This document shows positions 12,264-43,069 of a stretch of DNA of 64,000 bases, one piece after another. Under the pieces are notes generated by a model. The model ran no database searches and had not been told where the DNA came from. It saw only the letters and a program-made list of their open reading frames with translations. The stretch's first letter is position 1. Each line of letters opens with the position of its first letter. This DNA is from an uncultured virus (IMG/VR IMGVR_UViG_3300017917_004917). Lineage: Duplodnaviria; Heunggongvirae; Uroviricota; Caudoviricetes. The stretch lies in IMG/VR virus record IMGVR_UViG_3300017917_004917. One strand, given 5' to 3'. The translations under genes and the position numbers were made by a program.

Positions 12264-12806
12264 TTGAATAATAACAAAAAAATAAAAGGAGAGAAATTTG
12301 GCTCTAATTATAAAATTAACAACAACATAGTACAAAAAGAAGTTAGAGTAGTAGAGGGTCTAGATATTGGCATATACAACACCATTGATGCGATAAGCGA
12401 AGCAGAATCTCTTGGTTTAGACCTAATATTAATAAATGAAAAAGTAAATCCACCCATATGTAAGGTGATGGATTTTAGCAAATTTCTATACGAAGAGAAA
12501 CAAAGAGAAAAGGATAATCTAAAAAATCAAAAGAAAACCGTACTTAAGGAAGTTCAATTTAGCCCAAACATTGGAGATAATGATTATGAGACAAAAAAGA
12601 AAAGTGTAATAAAATTTCTTAAAGATGGGAATAAAGTAAAAGTTAGTGTATTCTTTAAAGGTAGGACTATTATGTTTAAAGATAAGGGTGAGTTAATTTT
12701 AGCTAAATTAGCAACGGAAATAGAGGAACATGGCATTCCAGAATGCTTACCAAAACTTACTGGAAAGAATATGATGTTTATATTAAAACCTAAAAAAACA
12801 AAATAA
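12264..12806 (+). CDS. infC: Translation initiation factor IF-3
   Basis: IN..I..KEVRVV, AESLGLDLILI...NPPICKVMDFSKFLYEEK, KEVQFSPNIGDNDYETK, FLKDGNKVKVSVFFKGR. Confidence 0.95.
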   Translation: MNNNKKIKGEKFGSNYKINNNIVQKEVRVVEGLDIGIYNTIDAISEAESLGLDLILINEKVNPPICKVMDFSKFLYEEKQREKDNLKNQKKTVLKEVQFSPNIGDNDYETKKKSVIKFLKDGNKVKVSVFFKGRTIMFKDKGELILAKLATEIEEHGIPECLPKLTGKNMMFILKPKKTK

Positions 12807-17103: not shown

Positions 17104-17565
17104 TTAAACTCCCAAACCTTGTGAAGCTCCTCCTGAACCAAGTCTAGAAGCCCCATATCTACCTGGCTTATAAATTACAGTTCCAGACTTAGGTTCTGAA
17201 ATAATTTGACCTGAATATCCATTTGCTTCCATAGCAGAAACAAAACCAGCCTCATCAAGAGTCTTTCCTTCAGAGTTAAACTTGGTATACCCCATCCCCT
17301 TAAGCTTTTCAATTCTAGCCATAAGAACTTCTTTTCTCTTATTTACTTCAGCATCATCATCTTTAAGTCCAAGAAATTTACCAAGACCTTCTTCAATCTC
17401 TTCATCTTCCATCTCACCCTCCATGTAAGATTCGTTCATAAGTTTTTTAAGCTCATTTTGAAGTGCTTTTTTTTCGTTTTCAAGAACCATTCTCTTTTTA
17501 AGCTTAAGAGCTTCTTCTCTAATAATTTCTCTGAACTCAGAGATTGTTAATTCTTTTTTTGCCAT
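17104..17565 (-). CDS. Leader-motif protein of unknown function
   Basis: ELTISEFREIIREEALKLKK...LMNES...IEEG. Confidence 0.6.
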   Translation of the reverse strand: MAKKELTISEFREIIREEALKLKKRMVLENEKKALQNELKKLMNESYMEGEMEDEEIEEGLGKFLGLKDDDAEVNKRKEVLMARIEKLKGMGYTKFNSEGKTLDEAGFVSAMEANGYSGQIISEPKSGTVIYKPGRYGASRLGSGGASQGLGV

Positions 17566-17643
17566 GACAGTATTAATTGTTAACGTTAATATACTTTGTT
17601 TTAAAATAAATAGTATTAAAAAAACAAAATTATATAAAATAAA

Positions 17644-17780
17644 TTACAACGTTTCACAAGTTTGTGTTCGGTGTTGGATTAAGAAAGTCAATTTCTCAAG
17701 TTATGATAATGCTTATAAGAAACACAAAGCTTAAATAAGCCACCAAGACCAACACTGGCACAAACTTGTTGTTGTGTGTA
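17644..17780 (-). repeat. attC-like cassette recombination site (long imperfect palindrome)
   Basis: On the minus strand TACACACAAC follows just after a stop codon and the site ends in GTTGTAA. Inner arms: acaagtttgtg (17656-17666) pairs with cacaaacttgt (17759-17769); gtgttgg (17671-17677) pairs with ccaacac (17749-17755). Confidence 0.75.
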
Positions 17781-18669
17781 GGTTTTTATTCGTCTATTGG
17801 GTCTATTTTATTAGTGTTCTCATCATCTTGGTTGTTCATTTTACTTAACTGAACAAATAATTTGTCCCAAGTAAATCCAACAACTATTGATGATACTATT
17901 TTTATATTGACAATTTCGGTTGTAGTTAAAATAAATGATATTAAAAACGAACCTACAATCCAAAGAAGTGGAATATAAATTTTTCCCCAGTTATATTTGT
18001 TGTTTTTATTATCACTATCATTTAAAGTCAGAATTTGTAATTTCAACAAATCTTTTCCTTTTGTTTTTATTAAAATACCATTTAATAAAACTAATATAAG
18101 TGAAATAACAAATGTTGTTATTGCAAAAATTAAGTGGGAATTACTTTGACTTGGTTCACCTTTTGAAAACCAAAATAAAACTAATTCTTTTAAAAAATCA
18201 GAGTTAAAACATGTCATAAATTATCTATTTTATCCCTTAAAAACTCTTTTGAATGAAAAAAACTTCTCGATATTTTTAAAGATTGTTTGAAATATTCAAA
18301 TTTTAATTCATAATCTTTATTACTGTTAATTATATATTTTAATTTCTCCATAGGACTCCTTAAAACAACTCTGATGTCTCCACGATTATCATTTATTATA
18401 AAAAACTCATCATTAGTTTTTAAAAGATATGTTCTCTGTTTTTCAACCTCAAATAATAATAAAACTCTACCTTTTAAATTATTTTCGTCTAAATCAAATA
18501 AGTCTGTTATATATTTAACAATCTTAGATTTTTCTTCAAATCGTCTAAAATTATCAATATGTTCTCTCATTTCTTTTGGCATACCTTCTTTATTTTCCTC
18601 AAATTTACCAATTTTCTCCTTCTCAGACAAATTGTTCTTTGTCGTGTCTTTTTTTAAACTTACACACAA
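17650..18669 (-). mobile_element. Integron-style gene cassette (two ORFs plus attC-like site) integrated at G|TT
   Basis: The cassette 5' end GTTGTGTGTA (18670-18661) is the exact complement of TACACACAAC (17780-17771). Removing the cassette restores an AAATTACAA/TTGTAATTT inverted repeat in the flanks. Confidence 0.75.
17786..18217 (-). CDS. Cassette-borne membrane protein
   Basis: Two to three hydrophobic helices; ends just before the attC-like site. Confidence 0.65.
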   Translation of the reverse strand: MTCFNSDFLKELVLFWFSKGEPSQSNSHLIFAITTFVISLILVLLNGILIKTKGKDLLKLQILTLNDSDNKNNKYNWGKIYIPLLWIVGSFLISFILTTTEIVNIKIVSSIVVGFTWDKLFVQLSKMNNQDDENTNKIDPIDE

Positions 18670-18729
18670 CCATAAATTATAAAGCATCGTTTTAATGTGC
18701 TTTATAAAAACTTGTAATTTGTTTTTCAT
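18214..18729 (-). CDS. Cassette-borne hypothetical protein, in-frame with a phage leader (own TTG at 18630)
   Basis: About the first 20 codons lie outside the cassette; internal TTG after an A-rich acacgacaaagaacaat leader. Confidence 0.6.
   Translation of the reverse strand: MKNKLQVFIKHIKTMLYNLWLCVSLKKDTTKNNLSEKEKIGKFEENKEGMPKEMREHIDNFRRFEEKSKIVKYITDLFDLDENNLKGRVLLLFEVEKQRTYLLKTNDEFFIINDNRGDIRVVLRSPMEKLKYIINSNKDYELKFEYFKQSLKISRSFFHSKEFLRDKIDNL
18670..18720 (-). repeat. Phage-side palindromic attachment site (left half)
   Basis: Perfect inverted repeat ttataaagca (18677-18686) / tgctttataa (18698-18707). The outer arm AAATTACAA (18720-18712) pairs with TTGTAATTT (17649-17641). Confidence 0.7.
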
Positions 18730-21725
18730 CTTATATCAATTTTTAAATTATTAATCAATTCTTTTATAATACTTGAATCTGATGAATTTACATCCTTTTT
18801 AACTACTTTTCCGTCTAAAACTTTAGATACAACATTTTCTTTTTGATTCAATAAGTCTCTAATAATTTCATCTATAGTATCAACACACACATAAGTTATT
18901 ATTTGAATGTTATCATGAGTTGTTGTAGCTCTGTGTATTCGGTCAGAAGCCTGTTCCATATCTCCTGGGGTCCATGCAAATCCAAGAAAAATTAACTTAG
19001 ACGCTTCTGTTAATGTAATACCAACTCCAGATGCTCCAATCATACCAGAAAATAAACAAACCTTTTTGTCTTCTTGAAATCTTTCTACAGATTGTTGCTT
19101 ATCCTCCTGATTCATACTTCCAGTGTGGATTACAGCTTTATCCTTATATTCGTTATATAAATGCTCTGCAATATTTTGATAGTCTGACATAACTACTAAT
19201 TTATCGCCATTACTTGATATATCATCTATAACACCATCGCTAATTAATCTATTTAATTTTACTTGACCAGTAAATTGCTTAAGTTTATGTATTTTTTCTA
19301 AATATGACTCCTCCTTTAATTTCTCATCACCACTATCTCCAATAACTTTTTTCATTTCCTTAAGAAGTTTTTCATATTCTTTTCTTTCTGTTGGAGTAAG
19401 TTCAATCTCAATTTCTGTATATGTCTTATCTGGAAGTTGACTTAACACATCCTTCTTAAGTCTTCTAAGAAAATATGGAGATATTCTTGTAAATAATTCC
19501 TCAAGATTTGATGCTCCGCTATAGTCCCAACCAAAATTTGTTTCATATCCAGCACAATATCTAACACCAAAGTCATGACTTGAATTCCACATCTCAGGGT
19601 CCATGAAATTAAGTCCTGAGAAAAATTCCATTGGCCTTGACTTAATTGCTGTACCAGAAATTAAAATTCTCTTGTCAACAACGTCTCTAAATGCCCTCTT
19701 AATAATTTGAGTCCAATCCGTCTTAGAACTCTTAATTCTATGAAACTCATCAATAACAATTAGACCATAATCTTCTGGGTCAATATAGCTACCATCTTTA
19801 TCTTCTATGTACACTATATTATTAATTTTTGATTTAAATGAATTTGTATTCTTACAATTTTCACATTTCTTATGCTTCTTATTTAAGTCTATTATTTCAA
19901 GTCCACATTTTTGCGTGCCCTTTCCAGGGACTATAATATTTCCACCACACTTATGCTTATACTCTATTTTAATATAACTTTGAATAGATTCATAATTTAT
20001 GATATGAAATAAACTTTCTTCCTTATTATAGTTTATATTATTACTTCTCTTACTTGGAGTATACTTGAAGATATGAGCTTTTTCATTGCTAAAATTTAAT
20101 ATTTCCTTCCTCCAGTTAAGCTTAAGAGAAGCGGGACATATTATAAGAGTCTTTAGCTTATGCTTGGCTGCATATGTAATTGGCGGCAATGTATTGTGAG
20201 TTACAATGTAGTGGTCAGTTATATATGTATGGTCTGGAGAATCTACTAGAATACACTGATGCTCTTCTTCTTTAATCTCTTCAACTTTTTTTATATATCT
20301 ATTTAAATAGTTAATAGTAGGTTTTTTCCAATTTTCTTTTTTGGAGGTTAAATGAAATGGACATATGTTTATTTTTATATTCACTCTCCATTCAGTATTT
20401 TTATTTTGATGTTTCCTATCGTATTTTTTTATTTTTGCAATACCACCTAAAGATTGAACTAACTCTGATATATCAAAAGCCAGTTTTTCTGAGTGAGTAT
20501 GGTAATTAATTCTATTATTTAAAGCGCTCCCATCTGTGTCCATCAAGCCTCGTAATAGTTCTGTCCTTTGTTCAACGCTACCATGTAGATATTCTGTGGG
20601 TATAAACTTATGTGTTGATTTGATATTTAAACCTAATCTTTTTATTTCTTTCTTAATTATATTTTCACCAACACTATGATTTCTTGTGATAGAATAACTT
20701 GGACACGAGCCATGTCTGTTTTCACATAACTTAAAGTCTTCTGGTAATTTGCTTAAAATTTTATCCCTAATTTCTAATTGAAAATCTGGAATTGAAATTG
20801 ATACAGTTTTTCCGCAAATATATCCATCACCTATTAGAGAGCCTAAAACATAAGGTTCAATAATATAATCTTTTTCTTTAAACAATATAGGAGAAACAAT
20901 GGGTATTTCCCACTTAAGAGATGGCTCTCTATTTGTTTTTAATCTACTTGGAGACATTTTATCAAAAATTCCAAGACTAACTATTTCTTTTAAAGTTTTT
21001 GTTGTCCAATCATCACCATTTTTTCTCCTTCTATTTTTATCTCTTACAGACCATAAGTGGTCAATGCTACATTCAGTGTGGAATCCATCACTAAAAGTGA
21101 CTTTATAGGTTTTTTTAATACCCTGTGGGTATATTTCTTTAACCGAACACACACCTCCATCTCTATGGAATATTTTGTCACCCACCTTGATGTCACCCAT
21201 TTTAATCCATCCTTTTGGGGTTGAAATTAGAGAACTTAAATTTTGGCTCTTACCTACACCTGGCTGGTCCCCAAGAATAGCCTTACCTTGATTGATTTCG
21301 AAGAACTTAACTGCCTGCTTCTGATAATCATATGGCTGAATCTTCATGAAACTGAAGTCCATATCATCAAAAACAAGAGTTTCCTCTTTTGCCTTTAAAG
21401 CTTCAGAAACCCTTTTTTGTCTTTCAAGATATTCTATTCTAAGAGCATTTAATTCTTCTGGCAATAGATTTTCAAATACAAAAGGAATTGAATTATCTAC
21501 CATAAATGATATTATATTCCCTATTTGAACCTCTCTTATTATCCTAACCCACTCATCCTTTGTTCCACCATTAACATCAAGAACATTGTCAACCCTAACA
21601 GACCTATGCTCCTTAGGGAGTGTTTTTATATATGTCGCTAAAATAGGTAGATAATCAAATCTTAGTTCATAATTTGTTCTTAGCTTTCTTAATTTAACTG
21701 TAGGTATTTCTTTCTTTTTTGCCAT
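18726..21725 (-). CDS. SNF2-family helicase with intein
   Basis: PYDYQ, LGDQPGVGK|T (Walker A interrupted), ICPASLK.NW, IDEFH, ISGT, LRRLKKDV..QLP.K, GVGITLT, WTPG..EQA.DRIHR. Confidence 0.92.
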   Translation of the reverse strand: MAKKKEIPTVKLRKLRTNYELRFDYLPILATYIKTLPKEHRSVRVDNVLDVNGGTKDEWVRIIREVQIGNIISFMVDNSIPFVFENLLPEELNALRIEYLERQKRVSEALKAKEETLVFDDMDFSFMKIQPYDYQKQAVKFFEINQGKAILGDQPGVGKSQNLSSLISTPKGWIKMGDIKVGDKIFHRDGGVCSVKEIYPQGIKKTYKVTFSDGFHTECSIDHLWSVRDKNRRRKNGDDWTTKTLKEIVSLGIFDKMSPSRLKTNREPSLKWEIPIVSPILFKEKDYIIEPYVLGSLIGDGYICGKTVSISIPDFQLEIRDKILSKLPEDFKLCENRHGSCPSYSITRNHSVGENIIKKEIKRLGLNIKSTHKFIPTEYLHGSVEQRTELLRGLMDTDGSALNNRINYHTHSEKLAFDISELVQSLGGIAKIKKYDRKHQNKNTEWRVNIKINICPFHLTSKKENWKKPTINYLNRYIKKVEEIKEEEHQCILVDSPDHTYITDHYIVTHNTLPPITYAAKHKLKTLIICPASLKLNWRKEILNFSNEKAHIFKYTPSKRSNNINYNKEESLFHIINYESIQSYIKIEYKHKCGGNIIVPGKGTQKCGLEIIDLNKKHKKCENCKNTNSFKSKINNIVYIEDKDGSYIDPEDYGLIVIDEFHRIKSSKTDWTQIIKRAFRDVVDKRILISGTAIKSRPMEFFSGLNFMDPEMWNSSHDFGVRYCAGYETNFGWDYSGASNLEELFTRISPYFLRRLKKDVLSQLPDKTYTEIEIELTPTERKEYEKLLKEMKKVIGDSGDEKLKEESYLEKIHKLKQFTGQVKLNRLISDGVIDDISSNGDKLVVMSDYQNIAEHLYNEYKDKAVIHTGSMNQEDKQQSVERFQEDKKVCLFSGMIGASGVGITLTEASKLIFLGFAWTPGDMEQASDRIHRATTTHDNIQIITYVCVDTIDEIIRDLLNQKENVVSKVLDGKVVKKDVNSSDSSIIKELINNLKIDIR
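20193..21248 (-). mobile_element. Intein with LAGLIDADG homing endonuclease (352 aa), class 3 signature
   Basis: GK|SQNLSSLISTPKGW...CSIDHLW...PYVLGSLIGDG...LLRGLMDTDG...HQCILVD..DHTYITD.YIVTHN|T. Confidence 0.9.
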
Positions 21726-21733
21726 TAAAATAT

Positions 21734-22102
21734 TTATTTAATTTTTTCTTTCTTTTTTTTAATTCTAAGATTCTCGGCTCTCTTAACAAAATTATCTTCC
21801 TTTTGATTACTCTCTTTCTTATCAATAATAGCTTTTTCAAGCTTAGTAAGAAATATTGTTTCACCCTTATATTCTCCAATCTCTGGCTCTTTAGAAAATT
21901 TTTTAATTTGAATTGACTCCCTAATAAACTCAGCCAAAAGTCGAATATCCTGCATAGAATGCCTAACATCAACCCCTGCCGTCTTGTTTCCTTTCAAAAA
22001 TTGCTCCGCTCTTTTTACATTACTCTTAGCAACTTCAATCAACTTATATAGCAAATCGAGTTCACTGTACTCTCTTAGCTCTTCTAGTTCATTCAACTCC
22101 AT
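21734..22102 (-). CDS. Hc1-like (histone H1-like) small protein
   Basis: AEQFLKGNKTAGVDVRHSMQDIRLLA..IR resembles the Bacteroidota Hc1 motif (F.KGNK.AG.R.RK). Confidence 0.6.
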   Translation of the reverse strand: MELNELEELREYSELDLLYKLIEVAKSNVKRAEQFLKGNKTAGVDVRHSMQDIRLLAEFIRESIQIKKFSKEPEIGEYKGETIFLTKLEKAIIDKKESNQKEDNFVKRAENLRIKKKKEKIK

Positions 22103-41104: not shown

Positions 41105-43069
41105 ATGATTGGAGAATTAATACCTACTGGAGTAACTTTTGGAACTGGAAGGAACTCTATAAATGAACAATTTAGCGGAACTGCTGAGTTTAATAATGTT
41201 AAACTTGAATCTGGGGGGGATTTTTCTGGCGGAACTGGTGGTGGTGTTATTTTTTCTGGCGGAACTGACCTTTATGATATTTTTGGAAGTACAAGTGGAG
41301 ACCTTTGGAGTGCTTCAACTGGAACAGGGTCAATAATAGCTAATAATGGAACTGGGAACTTGGCAAGTGGAGGGTTTTCTATTGCTGGAGGAAGTGCGAA
41401 TATTGCAGCTGGAGATTCATCTTTTATAGGCGGAGGTTCTTCTAACTCGGCAACAACTAAAAATTCTGTAATAACTGGAGGATATAATAATATAGCTGGT
41501 AGTGGGGGTCTTTTCTTTTCTACAGACTATTCGTCTTTTATAGGAGCAGGTCATAATAATAATGTATCAAAAAAATATTCATCAATTGTTGGTGGTAGAT
41601 TTAATAAAATAGGTGAAAGAGATGCATTTATTGGAGGTGGGTATGGTAACTTGGCTTCTGGAATTCAATCACTTGTTGTAGGTGGTTATAAAAACTCAGC
41701 GACAACATTTAACTCTTCAGTTGTTGGTGGTTTTAAGAACTTGGCGAATCAAAAATATTCTTTCATTGGAGGTGGTAAACAAAATTTATCTTCTGGTTAT
41801 TACTCACTTGTTGGAGGTGGGTACAAAAACTCGGCAACAACATTTTATTCTTCAGTTGTTGGGGGCTTATCCAATATCACTAAAGGTAGTGGTTCTTTTA
41901 TTGGGGGCGGAATTTATAATATTTCTTCTGGTGATTATTGCATTGTTATTGGCGGAACAGAAAACTCAGCAACAACAGTAAATTCAACAATTATTAGTGG
42001 ACTTGCTAACTTATCTTCTTCAAATCAATCTTTCATTGGCACTGGTATATTTAATTTAGCATCTAGTGATTTTTCTTTCATTGGTACTGGAAATCAAAAC
42101 TCAGCAACAACAACTTCCTCTACTATAGTTAGTGGGAGGCAGAATTTAGCTTCTGGACAATATTCGTTTATTGGTGGCGGACGTCAGAATTTAGCTTCTG
42201 GACATTATTCGTTTATTGGAGAAGGAAAACAAAACTCGGCAACAACATCATATTCAACAGTTGTTGGTGGTCGAAGAAATTTAGTTTCAGGAGCAGATTC
42301 TTTTATTGGAGGTGGCTTTCAAAATTCAGCAACAACACAATTTTCAACAGTTGTTGGTGGCTCACAAAATTTAGCTTCTGGACAATTTTCTTTTGTTGGA
42401 GGCGGTATTTTCAATTCAGCAAAATCACAAAAGTCATTTATTGGAGGTGGGAGTCAAAATTCAATAGACGCTAGTTCAAGTTATGCTTCTATTTTATCAG
42501 GTAGAGGAAATAAGATATATTCTTCTTCAAATTATTCTTCTATATTAGGTGGGTATAATAATAAAGCAACTGGATTTTATTCTTCTATTATAGGAGGGGT
42601 AAACAATGAAGCAAATGATTTTAAAACTTTTATTATAAATTCAACAAATAGTTATGCTATTGCTCCTAGTGCTTTTGTTATAGGTGGTATTAATAATGTT
42701 TCTCAAGGATTTTCTGGCTTTACAATAGGTGGTTCTAATAGCAGCGCAGGTTCTAGTGGCGGATTTGTAATAGGTGGTTTTGATAGTGGGACTATTAATG
42801 ATGCTGATTACCAATCTATAATAAACTCAACAAATTCACTTTTATCAAACTCACAAGGCTCAACAATAATATCTTCCTCAGGATTGACAGTAAGTAATAA
42901 AGAATGGACCACAATAATGCAAAGAGCATATGTTGATGAATATATTGACCTTAAACCATTAACCACATTACCTTCTCCAAGTCTTGGTAGGATATTTTTT
43001 AGTGGTTCTCCTCTTTTTAAATTAATGATAAATACTGGAGGCACTGCATCGAATTGGGTGGTAGTCTAA
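41105..43069 (+). CDS. Repeat-rich tail fibre/adhesin-like protein
   Basis: Long array of about 15-aa SFIGGGxxNLASG / STVVGGxxNSATT repeats; paralog of 1..1540. Confidence 0.75.
   Translation: MIGELIPTGVTFGTGRNSINEQFSGTAEFNNVKLESGGDFSGGTGGGVIFSGGTDLYDIFGSTSGDLWSASTGTGSIIANNGTGNLASGGFSIAGGSANIAAGDSSFIGGGSSNSATTKNSVITGGYNNIAGSGGLFFSTDYSSFIGAGHNNNVSKKYSSIVGGRFNKIGERDAFIGGGYGNLASGIQSLVVGGYKNSATTFNSSVVGGFKNLANQKYSFIGGGKQNLSSGYYSLVGGGYKNSATTFYSSVVGGLSNITKGSGSFIGGGIYNISSGDYCIVIGGTENSATTVNSTIISGLANLSSSNQSFIGTGIFNLASSDFSFIGTGNQNSATTTSSTIVSGRQNLASGQYSFIGGGRQNLASGHYSFIGEGKQNSATTSYSTVVGGRRNLVSGADSFIGGGFQNSATTQFSTVVGGSQNLASGQFSFVGGGIFNSAKSQKSFIGGGSQNSIDASSSYASILSGRGNKIYSSSNYSSILGGYNNKATGFYSSIIGGVNNEANDFKTFIINSTNSYAIAPSAFVIGGINNVSQGFSGFTIGGSNSSAGSSGGFVIGGFDSGTINDADYQSIINSTNSLLSNSQGSTIISSSGLTVSNKEWTTIMQRAYVDEYIDLKPLTTLPSPSLGRIFFSGSPLFKLMINTGGTASNWVVV

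Follow-up and report, generated by a model that had tools for sequence, protein, structure and literature searches.

A short leader reading frame across an attC-like hairpin runs on into the cargo of a gene cassette in an uncultured phage

The window analysed here, a stretch of 64,000 nucleotides (64 kb), is likely part of a large AT-rich phage genome, which encodes a helicase, an SbcC-like ATPase, an amidase and a baseplate J-like protein; related sequences occur on viral and metagenome contigs. The att family and the type of promoter, both described below, lead us to infer that its host probably belongs to the Bacteroidota. The helicase gene (18726-21725, minus strand) contains an intein-like insert with a LAGLIDADG domain at approximately residues 160 to 513, and the gene directly upstream of it (21734-22102, minus strand) matches the histone H1-like Hc1 family (PF07432, 27.8 bits against a cut-off of 23.5). 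Elsewhere in the window, two tail-fibre-like genes on opposite strands (80-1150 and 41548-42621), about 70% alike, carry coding repeats with a 45-bp period. A phage-encoded translation initiation factor IF-3 (12264-12806, plus strand; Pfam IF3_N and IF3_C both above cut-off) lies 6 kb from the entry site and could bear on start-codon choice. The features behind the helicase gene are collected in Table 1.

Table 1. Features of the helicase locus, entry site and inserted cassette (positions in the window)
Feature	Position	Strand	Basis or remark
SNF2-family helicase, 999 codons	18726..21725	-	Pfam SNF2-rel_dom, Helicase_C, LAGLIDADG_3; stop overlaps leader ATG
Leader ORF, 21 codons, ATG at 18729	18667..18729	-	rejoined empty site; codon 21 lies across the crossover; A at -3
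Entry-site hairpin, left part	18670..18726	-	fold of rejoined site, family alignment, covariation, model match of 71 bits
Outer arm of entry hairpin, with degenerate R'' box TTACAAG at 18717-18711	18726-18711	-	rejoined-site fold
Inner stem of entry hairpin	18707-18698 / 18686-18677	-	rejoined-site fold
Crossover G of entry hairpin	18670	-	GTT motif
Single two-gene cassette, 1020 bp	17650..18669	-	own ends complementary at 11/12 bases; rejoined attC z -5.6
Predicted Bacteroidota sigma-ABfr promoter in cassette	18600..18631	-	consensus match; function inferred
-33 box TTTG	18631-18628	-	consensus match
-7 box TAAATTTG	18607-18600	-	consensus match; predicted transcript start near 18595
Cargo gene 1 from own start, 122 aa, weak PH-like fold	18214..18582	-	family start at ATG 18582
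Cargo gene 2, 143 aa, hydrophobic	17786..18217	-	ATGA overlap with gene 1; 11 relatives, 53-86% identity
Long attC-like site of cassette, 134 bp, crossover G at 17650	17644..17777	-	fold
Right arm of entry site, complementary to 18726-18711	17636..17649	-	rejoined-site fold; GTTGTAAT after cassette at 4/4 leader sites
Native phage DNA after entry site: conserved intergenic motif and 153-aa gene	17104..17635	-	153-aa gene directly behind helicase in most relatives

Two crossover-type GTT motifs, at 18670 and 17650, lie 1020 bp apart and mark the limits of the cassette. The 12 bases from 18670 are complementary to 17782-17771 at 11 of 12 positions, and none of 300 shuffles folded as well as the attC obtained by rejoining these ends. 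The long hairpin at 17777-17644 has the properties of an attC site: AAC...GTT boxes, ends that match the cassette start, and a bottom strand that folds better than the top (-23.4 kcal/mol, z -4.0, 0 of 200 shuffles as good, against a top-strand z of -2.4). When the cassette is removed by script and the flanks are joined (18726-18670 with 17649-17636), the empty site also folds, as a 71-bp hairpin with z -4.2 on one strand and -3.9 on the other (equalled by 0 and 2 of 300 shuffles, respectively), while the left half of the site alone forms no hairpin (z -0.8 and -1.1). The matching right arm after the cassette indicates that the phage hairpin served as the target site. This empty site at the helicase locus is a reconstruction by script; no natural empty copy of a leader-bearing site was found, at the helicase locus or elsewhere in the sequences searched. 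Rfam gave no match for either the entry hairpin or the long attC-like hairpin. On a possible transposon reading, the arms would be terminal repeats beside a target duplication; the short A/T-rich direct repeats that flank the unit (6 bp in the window, 9 bp in locus L129) are not distinguishable from chance.

The entry site is foreign to the helicase locus: the hairpin model matches at none of the 25 helicase loci of related phages that were searched, out of 31 identified. At 18 of these 31 loci, which form a redundant set, 55 to 77 bp separate the helicase stop from the conserved 153-aa gene; the remaining loci have other genes or spacers behind the helicase. The two closest helicase relatives end two residues past a shared NNLK and have no hairpin, which suggests that the ATGA overlap probably arose with the insertion. 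In one relative (L020, 3727-5273) the helicase 3' end is duplicated, with a window-like end, two extra genes, a second 74-codon end and then the conserved gene, an arrangement that marks the position behind the helicase as an insertion hotspot. Another (L004, 4727-4900) has a 175-bp spacer behind the helicase with a GC-richer segment that is missing from its relatives and is possibly a structured RNA.

On the minus strand, the ATG at 18729-18727 overlaps the helicase TGA. With the cassette in place, the frame that it opens continues for 171 codons; after scripted joining of the GTT at 18670 to the GTT at 17650 it comprises 21 codons followed by TAA. Both lengths and the overlap, as an earlier note on this DNA had given them, are borne out. 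The leader is very nearly the exact translation of the 71-bp hairpin, whose outer arm its ATG abuts. Overlapping neighbours are common in the window (15 of 52 minus-strand ORF pairs in a hand-picked list), and 4-base overlaps occur at 2 of these 52 pairs, the helicase/leader junction being one of the two. Less usual is that the 87 nt from the crossover to ATG 18582 are open in this frame: of 20,000 base shuffles of these 87 nt, 3.5% were open.

The same arrangement recurs elsewhere. When the 171-aa protein served as a profile query, it retrieved short matches covering its first 64 residues, each continuing into unrelated sequence, and a second protein search brought 15 more leader-bearing sequences. 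The total is 27, about six of them with a variant hairpin, and by cargo they form 16 unrelated clusters. Such a set is biased, a protein being recorded only if the gene caller had continued through, and we therefore scanned with a frame-blind DNA pattern that omits the ATG, itself designed from the leader-bearing proteins. Six loci were obtained: three antisense without a leader, and three (L129, L133 and L134) like the window. Each of the latter three consists of the stop of a co-directional gene, an ATG 6 to 17 nt later, the hairpin, one cassette and GTTGTAAT. The genes in front are unrelated (one metallophosphoesterase and two unknown), the leader starts ORFs of 284, 177 and 256 codons, and the cassettes, of 936, 994 and 830 bp, have ends that match each other at 10 to 11 of 12 bases. 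An in-frame ATG, an A at -3 and fusion to the cargo are found at all four leader sites, a count that does not amount to four independent trials and carries no p-value, because the sites have a common ancestry and L133 closely resembles L134 in both hairpin and 5' region. The check that the earlier note had called for, whether the frame is conserved with alternative cassettes, thus came out positive at 3/3 other co-directional phage sites found with the ATG-free pattern. Its proposal that the leader is coupled to the helicase as part of a replication operon did not survive: related phages lack the site there, and the other sites follow three unrelated genes at the variable gaps given above.

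Rejoined empty sites at the four leader loci fold with z scores of -4.3, -4.9, -2.3 and -4.8, and in them the leader stops right after the crossover in L133, L134 and the window, and some 17 codons later in L129. By sequence comparison, four different cassettes appear to have entered between the G and the TT of the same site, since one and the same pair of arms encloses each of them. Their long attC sites are of three different types, and in L129, the most telling case, where the hairpin is 2 nt shorter before the crossover, the cassette start differs and the frame is still kept; these differences imply that the cassettes were inserted separately. A first reading of the leader as a local accident was dropped once the leader-bearing sequences and the L129, L133 and L134 sites had emerged. 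Among the four leaders, the distinct codon changes are 5 synonymous and 15 non-synonymous, and similarity among leaders follows the DNA stem. From these sequences there is no sign of selection on the amino acids of the leader peptide, while its start and open frame look kept. The idea of a signal or lipoprotein peptide was dropped by eye, the middle of the leader being charged. Several further proteins (P0057, P0059, P0063, P0064, P0020, P0033 and P0019) have longer hairpin types with the same first leader codons, reading into cassettes; judging from these proteins, the leader start module may be common to several hairpin families.

By its sequence and fold, the 71-bp hairpin is a member of a common family of short, Bacteroidota attC-like sites. 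Across 19 sequences, 94.7% of stem cells are paired and 14 cells are changed on both sides; none of 500 shuffles reached as high a covariation, for a structure derived from the same alignment. Within one family of the same phylum, 37 of 151 genomes have a match to the hairpin model, and at the 30 bacterial matches for which loci were fetched, the hairpin is an ordinary cassette-end site. Its core is also present in other phage contigs, mostly antisense to neighbouring genes. The core pattern matched 5 of 401 genomes of the phylum, one match being real; when phage and plasmid collections were queried by BLAST with the attC and with the leader region, only short matches appeared, one of which was a true family hairpin (L138); an inner-arm scan of viral contigs gave seven matches, none with att context; and the leader region, searched in 301 genomes, gave 17 matches, of which two were cassette starts and none had the leader hairpin.

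No recombinase was found near the phage sites. Across the 64-kb window, tblastn with two Bacteroidota recombinases gave no match better than E 0.76, and PF00589 has no match in five partial phage contigs, of which three carry the entry site. In two bacterial loci, L119 and L124, a tyrosine recombinase gene lies directly upstream of cassettes with the same first bases. These recombinases score 220.3 and 215.7 on NF040815 (XerA/integron-integrase; cut-off 220); on TIGR02249 they reach 210 and 199 bits, short of the cut-off of 265. Both loci (L119, 354-1500; L124, 252-1500) are integron-like platforms, in which the XerA-like recombinase gene is co-directional and the first site is not a hairpin; L119 has a 14-codon ORF across the crossover that stops inside the cassette, like ORF-11 of class 1 integrons, and L124 has none in that frame. 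These platforms share with the phage sites the first cassette bases and the same kind of long attC; they differ in that their first site stands behind the recombinase gene and gives no hairpin-model match. Platforms of this type are the likely source of both cassettes and enzyme, a XerA/IntI-like enzyme presumably acting in trans on the phage entry site.

Taken together, these observations lead us to favour, with rather more credence than doubt, a reading in which the entry hairpin captures a cassette and the leader ATG is translated in frame into the cargo. The 71-bp hairpin would be an entry site derived from an attC and equipped with a start codon of its own, located just behind the stop of a co-directional phage gene, here the helicase, the site itself having presumably arrived at each of its loci. 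A host recombinase of the Bacteroidota XerA/IntI-like type would then insert, in trans, one cassette between the G and the TT of the crossover. Translation of read-through mRNA would begin with the leader ATG, and ribosomes would pass over the hairpin into the first cargo gene without a change of frame; the resulting cargo protein would bear about 49 additional, loosely structured residues at its N-terminus. What would matter is the start and frame of the leader, and not its amino acids.

The cassette has predicted expression signals of its own. The earlier note had taken it to be promoterless, a view that gives way to the presence of TTTG-N20-TAAATTTG, which matches the Bacteroidota housekeeping promoter consensus as given in the accessible text of PMC6847099. 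This motif, with 17 matches in the 128 kb of window strands, sits inside the cassette and not upstream of the entry site. It is kept in the window, L133, L134 and the cassette of a Bacteroidia genome (L069), and is missing from L129; the first three of these cassettes combine it with an internal ATG. From the predicted start near 18595 to the cargo ATG the 5' UTR would be 13 nt, short but near to a median of 24 nt in the part of PMC9723704 available to us. A scan for sigma-70 promoters stayed at chance level (15 found against 11.9 expected), and phage promoters may differ from the sigma-70 consensus. TTG 18630, which the earlier note had set up as the competing start, lies inside the -33 box and upstream of the predicted transcript start; the competing start is instead ATG 18582, where the cargo family begins.

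These signals are the core of the first alternative, which we think doubtful though worth serious attention: the leader may be a by-product, its ATG inherited with the hairpin and its frame kept by selection against out-of-frame ribosomes that would obstruct the cargo start or by shared descent of one block, with the cassette expressed only from its own promoter and ATG 18582. In keeping with this, the promoter motif is preserved at the DNA level, the 5' region of the cassette being conserved up to TAAATTTG and no further, where peptide similarity also ends. The residue before KF varies among G, S and C and the one after it among E, G, D and V, all compatible with a fixed TAAATTTG. The column of ATG 18582 (Met50) holds Met in 9 of 14 aligned members of the cargo gene 1 family, whose core begins there, and several relatives are called from this start; a structure model of the 171-aa form is poor at residues 24-46 (pLDDT <50) and high after about residue 55. 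The absence of codon-level selection on the leader fits as well. Against a by-product, L129 is in frame despite having no promoter motif and a different junction geometry, selection against interference would still require the leader to be translated, and the leader ATG has A at -3 at 4/4 sites whereas ATG 18582 has G. The L129 cassette, lacking a promoter motif of its own, is possibly served by the leader. For the window, where promoter and ATG 18582 are both present, leader-driven translation as we favour it would supplement expression while the phage is being transcribed, probably without being its only source.

The cargo itself resembles little that is named. The PH-like fold of gene 1 is weak (best Z 7.4), with no Foldseek match at E 0.001 or better. 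The ESM Atlas gave no named family. Gene 2 has no Pfam, NCBIfam, PHROG or PADLOC match and was not found in the viral or genome contigs searched. PADLOC gave no match for 12 proteins, which leaves a defence role of the cargo unsupported. The L069 cassette has the attC family and 5' region of the window cassette with other cargo, and keeps the leader frame open without a leader in front; the long attC pattern matched seven genome sites, of which only L069 belongs to the family, and neither the long attC arm nor the cassette start was found when viral contigs were scanned for exact DNA matches. A 5' region of about 75 bp is common to cassettes with unrelated cargo (L069, 138-250; window, 18669-18583; L133; L134), with length differences of 6 and 12 nt. 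This shared region with its promoter motif, together with the similar long attC sites, resembles a reusable backbone and is of interest for the origin of cassettes. Unrelated to the window cassette is a 125-bp palindrome that recurs in a Gemmatimonadota genome (L068, L071, L072 and L073).

Two control sets speak for the favoured reading. A leader fused to at least 80 codons was seen at 0/16 other hairpin loci and 0/29 bacterial family sites, two sets that share one site (L089 = L142). Excluded from the counts were L080 and L087 (duplicates of L078 and L086), L083, L088 and L090-L092 (chance matches), and L170, whose crossover the script did not find. The cassette start recurs at 21 bacterial loci, at least two of them chance matches; of these loci, L069 alone has an open leader frame that leads into a long ORF, and most stop within 4 to 13 codons. 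The entry site would thus not fuse to most cassettes. By analogy, such early stops would suit re-initiation in the style of ORF-11; no leader site holding an early-stop cassette was found, and one leader ORF (P0030) ends at 76 aa. Of the earlier note's expression platform, then, one part stands, namely that start and frame are kept with other cassettes, while its reach is curtailed by the 1/21 of bacterial cassette starts that are open.

A second alternative accepts that the leader is translated and denies that the site still works as a platform for new cassettes: the hairpin would be locked together with its cassette and right arm in a moron-like block, moved between phages by illegitimate recombination. 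We hold this to be rather improbable, to about the same degree as the by-product. The four sites occupy unrelated positions with exactly one cassette each and one site per contig, an empty copy has not been seen, and no recombinase was found nearby in the window or the five partial phage contigs. The R' box is present in the window's entry hairpin and the AAC of R'' is not; R'' reads TTACAAG in the window and TTACAAA in L133 and L134, against AAC in 27 of 29 bacterial members of the family, and L129 has AAC at R'' but ATT at the crossover. With R'' degenerate at three of the four leader sites, these sites may no longer recombine. On the other side, four cargoes, three attC types and two cassette starts, each combination self-consistent, lie inside the same two arms, which implies repeated insertion between the G and the TT at some time, and cassette-free family hairpins do exist in phages (L131 and L132, nearly self-complementary, without cassette or leader). 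The last alternative, a lone cassette inserted at a chance GTT in ordinary phage DNA (an attG event leading to a SALIN), with the 171-aa ORF as a gene-calling artefact, is very improbable and largely refuted: lone cassettes at non-att sites are documented in bacteria in the available part of 10.1101/2022.09.11.507474 and ATGA overlaps are common in the window genome, but the target here is a structured attC-family member foreign to the helicase locus, and the same arms recur in three other phages.

Within the favoured reading of capture followed by leader translation, a bolder version is that phages of Bacteroidota carry a portable, integrase-free landing pad of 70 bp, which could stand behind any gene and join captured host cassettes to one common leader, and whose hairpin hides the start codon when empty and frees it when filled, so that capture would switch translation on. 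In RNA folding of short windows, the right arm pairs over the leader start only in the empty site at three of the four sites, where the predicted unpaired probability of positions +1 to +18 rises from 0.25-0.36 (empty) to 0.70-0.76 (filled); in L134, predicted accessibility of the leader start is unchanged between the two states. On the strength of these models we advance the switch only tentatively.

Among known systems, class 1 integrons offer a close parallel. As set out in the available text of PMC8876359, attI1 carries a short ORF across the crossover, ORF-11 (also ORF-17 and ORF-18), which has been proposed to deliver ribosomes to the first cassette. Going by that text, ORF-11 and the phage leader are alike in that the ORF, with its own start, spans the crossover, has its end set by the inserted cassette and depends little on its amino acids. 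ORF-11 lies in a non-hairpin attI beside intI1, under Pc, has a Shine-Dalgarno sequence and usually stops at the crossover; the phage leader, in contrast, lies in an attC-family hairpin without an adjoining integrase, would be reached by read-through from the upstream gene and forms a continuous fusion at 4/4 sites. The phage site is thus neither part of a complete integron nor the attI-type site that the earlier note had seen in it, since it folds as an attC-type palindrome and has no integrase beside it. By analogy, the phage entry element may work like attI1 with its ORF-11, an attC-family hairpin being its structural basis. Translation of the next cassette has also been described as aided by short ORFs within attC sites (Jacquier et al., as cited in the same available text of PMC8876359). 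There, as proposed for the phage leader, ribosomes resume translation just past the stop of a preceding gene and proceed across an attC hairpin; this attC is part of the preceding cassette, whereas in the phage the preceding gene is a core phage gene.

Clusters of attC sites without an integrase (CALINs) have been reported in phages, including a Polaribacter phage (Qi et al. 2023, PMC9892861). In the accessible portions of PMC9892861 and 10.1101/2022.09.11.507474, CALINs and SALINs resemble the window in having attC-like sites and cassettes with no integrase nearby, and neither a recurrent self-complementary entry site nor a leader ORF is described in those portions. The latter source, in the part available, describes attG sites as recombining double-stranded and as unlike attC and attI; the window has two att-like hairpins, and its target is a recurrent structured site. 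Bacteroidota are listed among the phyla with integrons in the text seen of PMC8618304. A search of full-text literature, with most subscription journals and supplements outside its coverage, found no published description of a leader-type hairpin site.

For annotators, these results mean that dozens of database proteins with this leader share a DNA structure and a promoter, and not a protein domain. If the favoured reading is right, a 70-bp site would suffice for a lytic-type phage to acquire host cassettes and express them without encoding a recombinase itself. Such a site would merge two jobs that are divided in integrons, that of attI (entry and expression) and that of attC (folded substrate), and would provide a small, testable construct for the sampling of the Bacteroidota cassette pool by phages.
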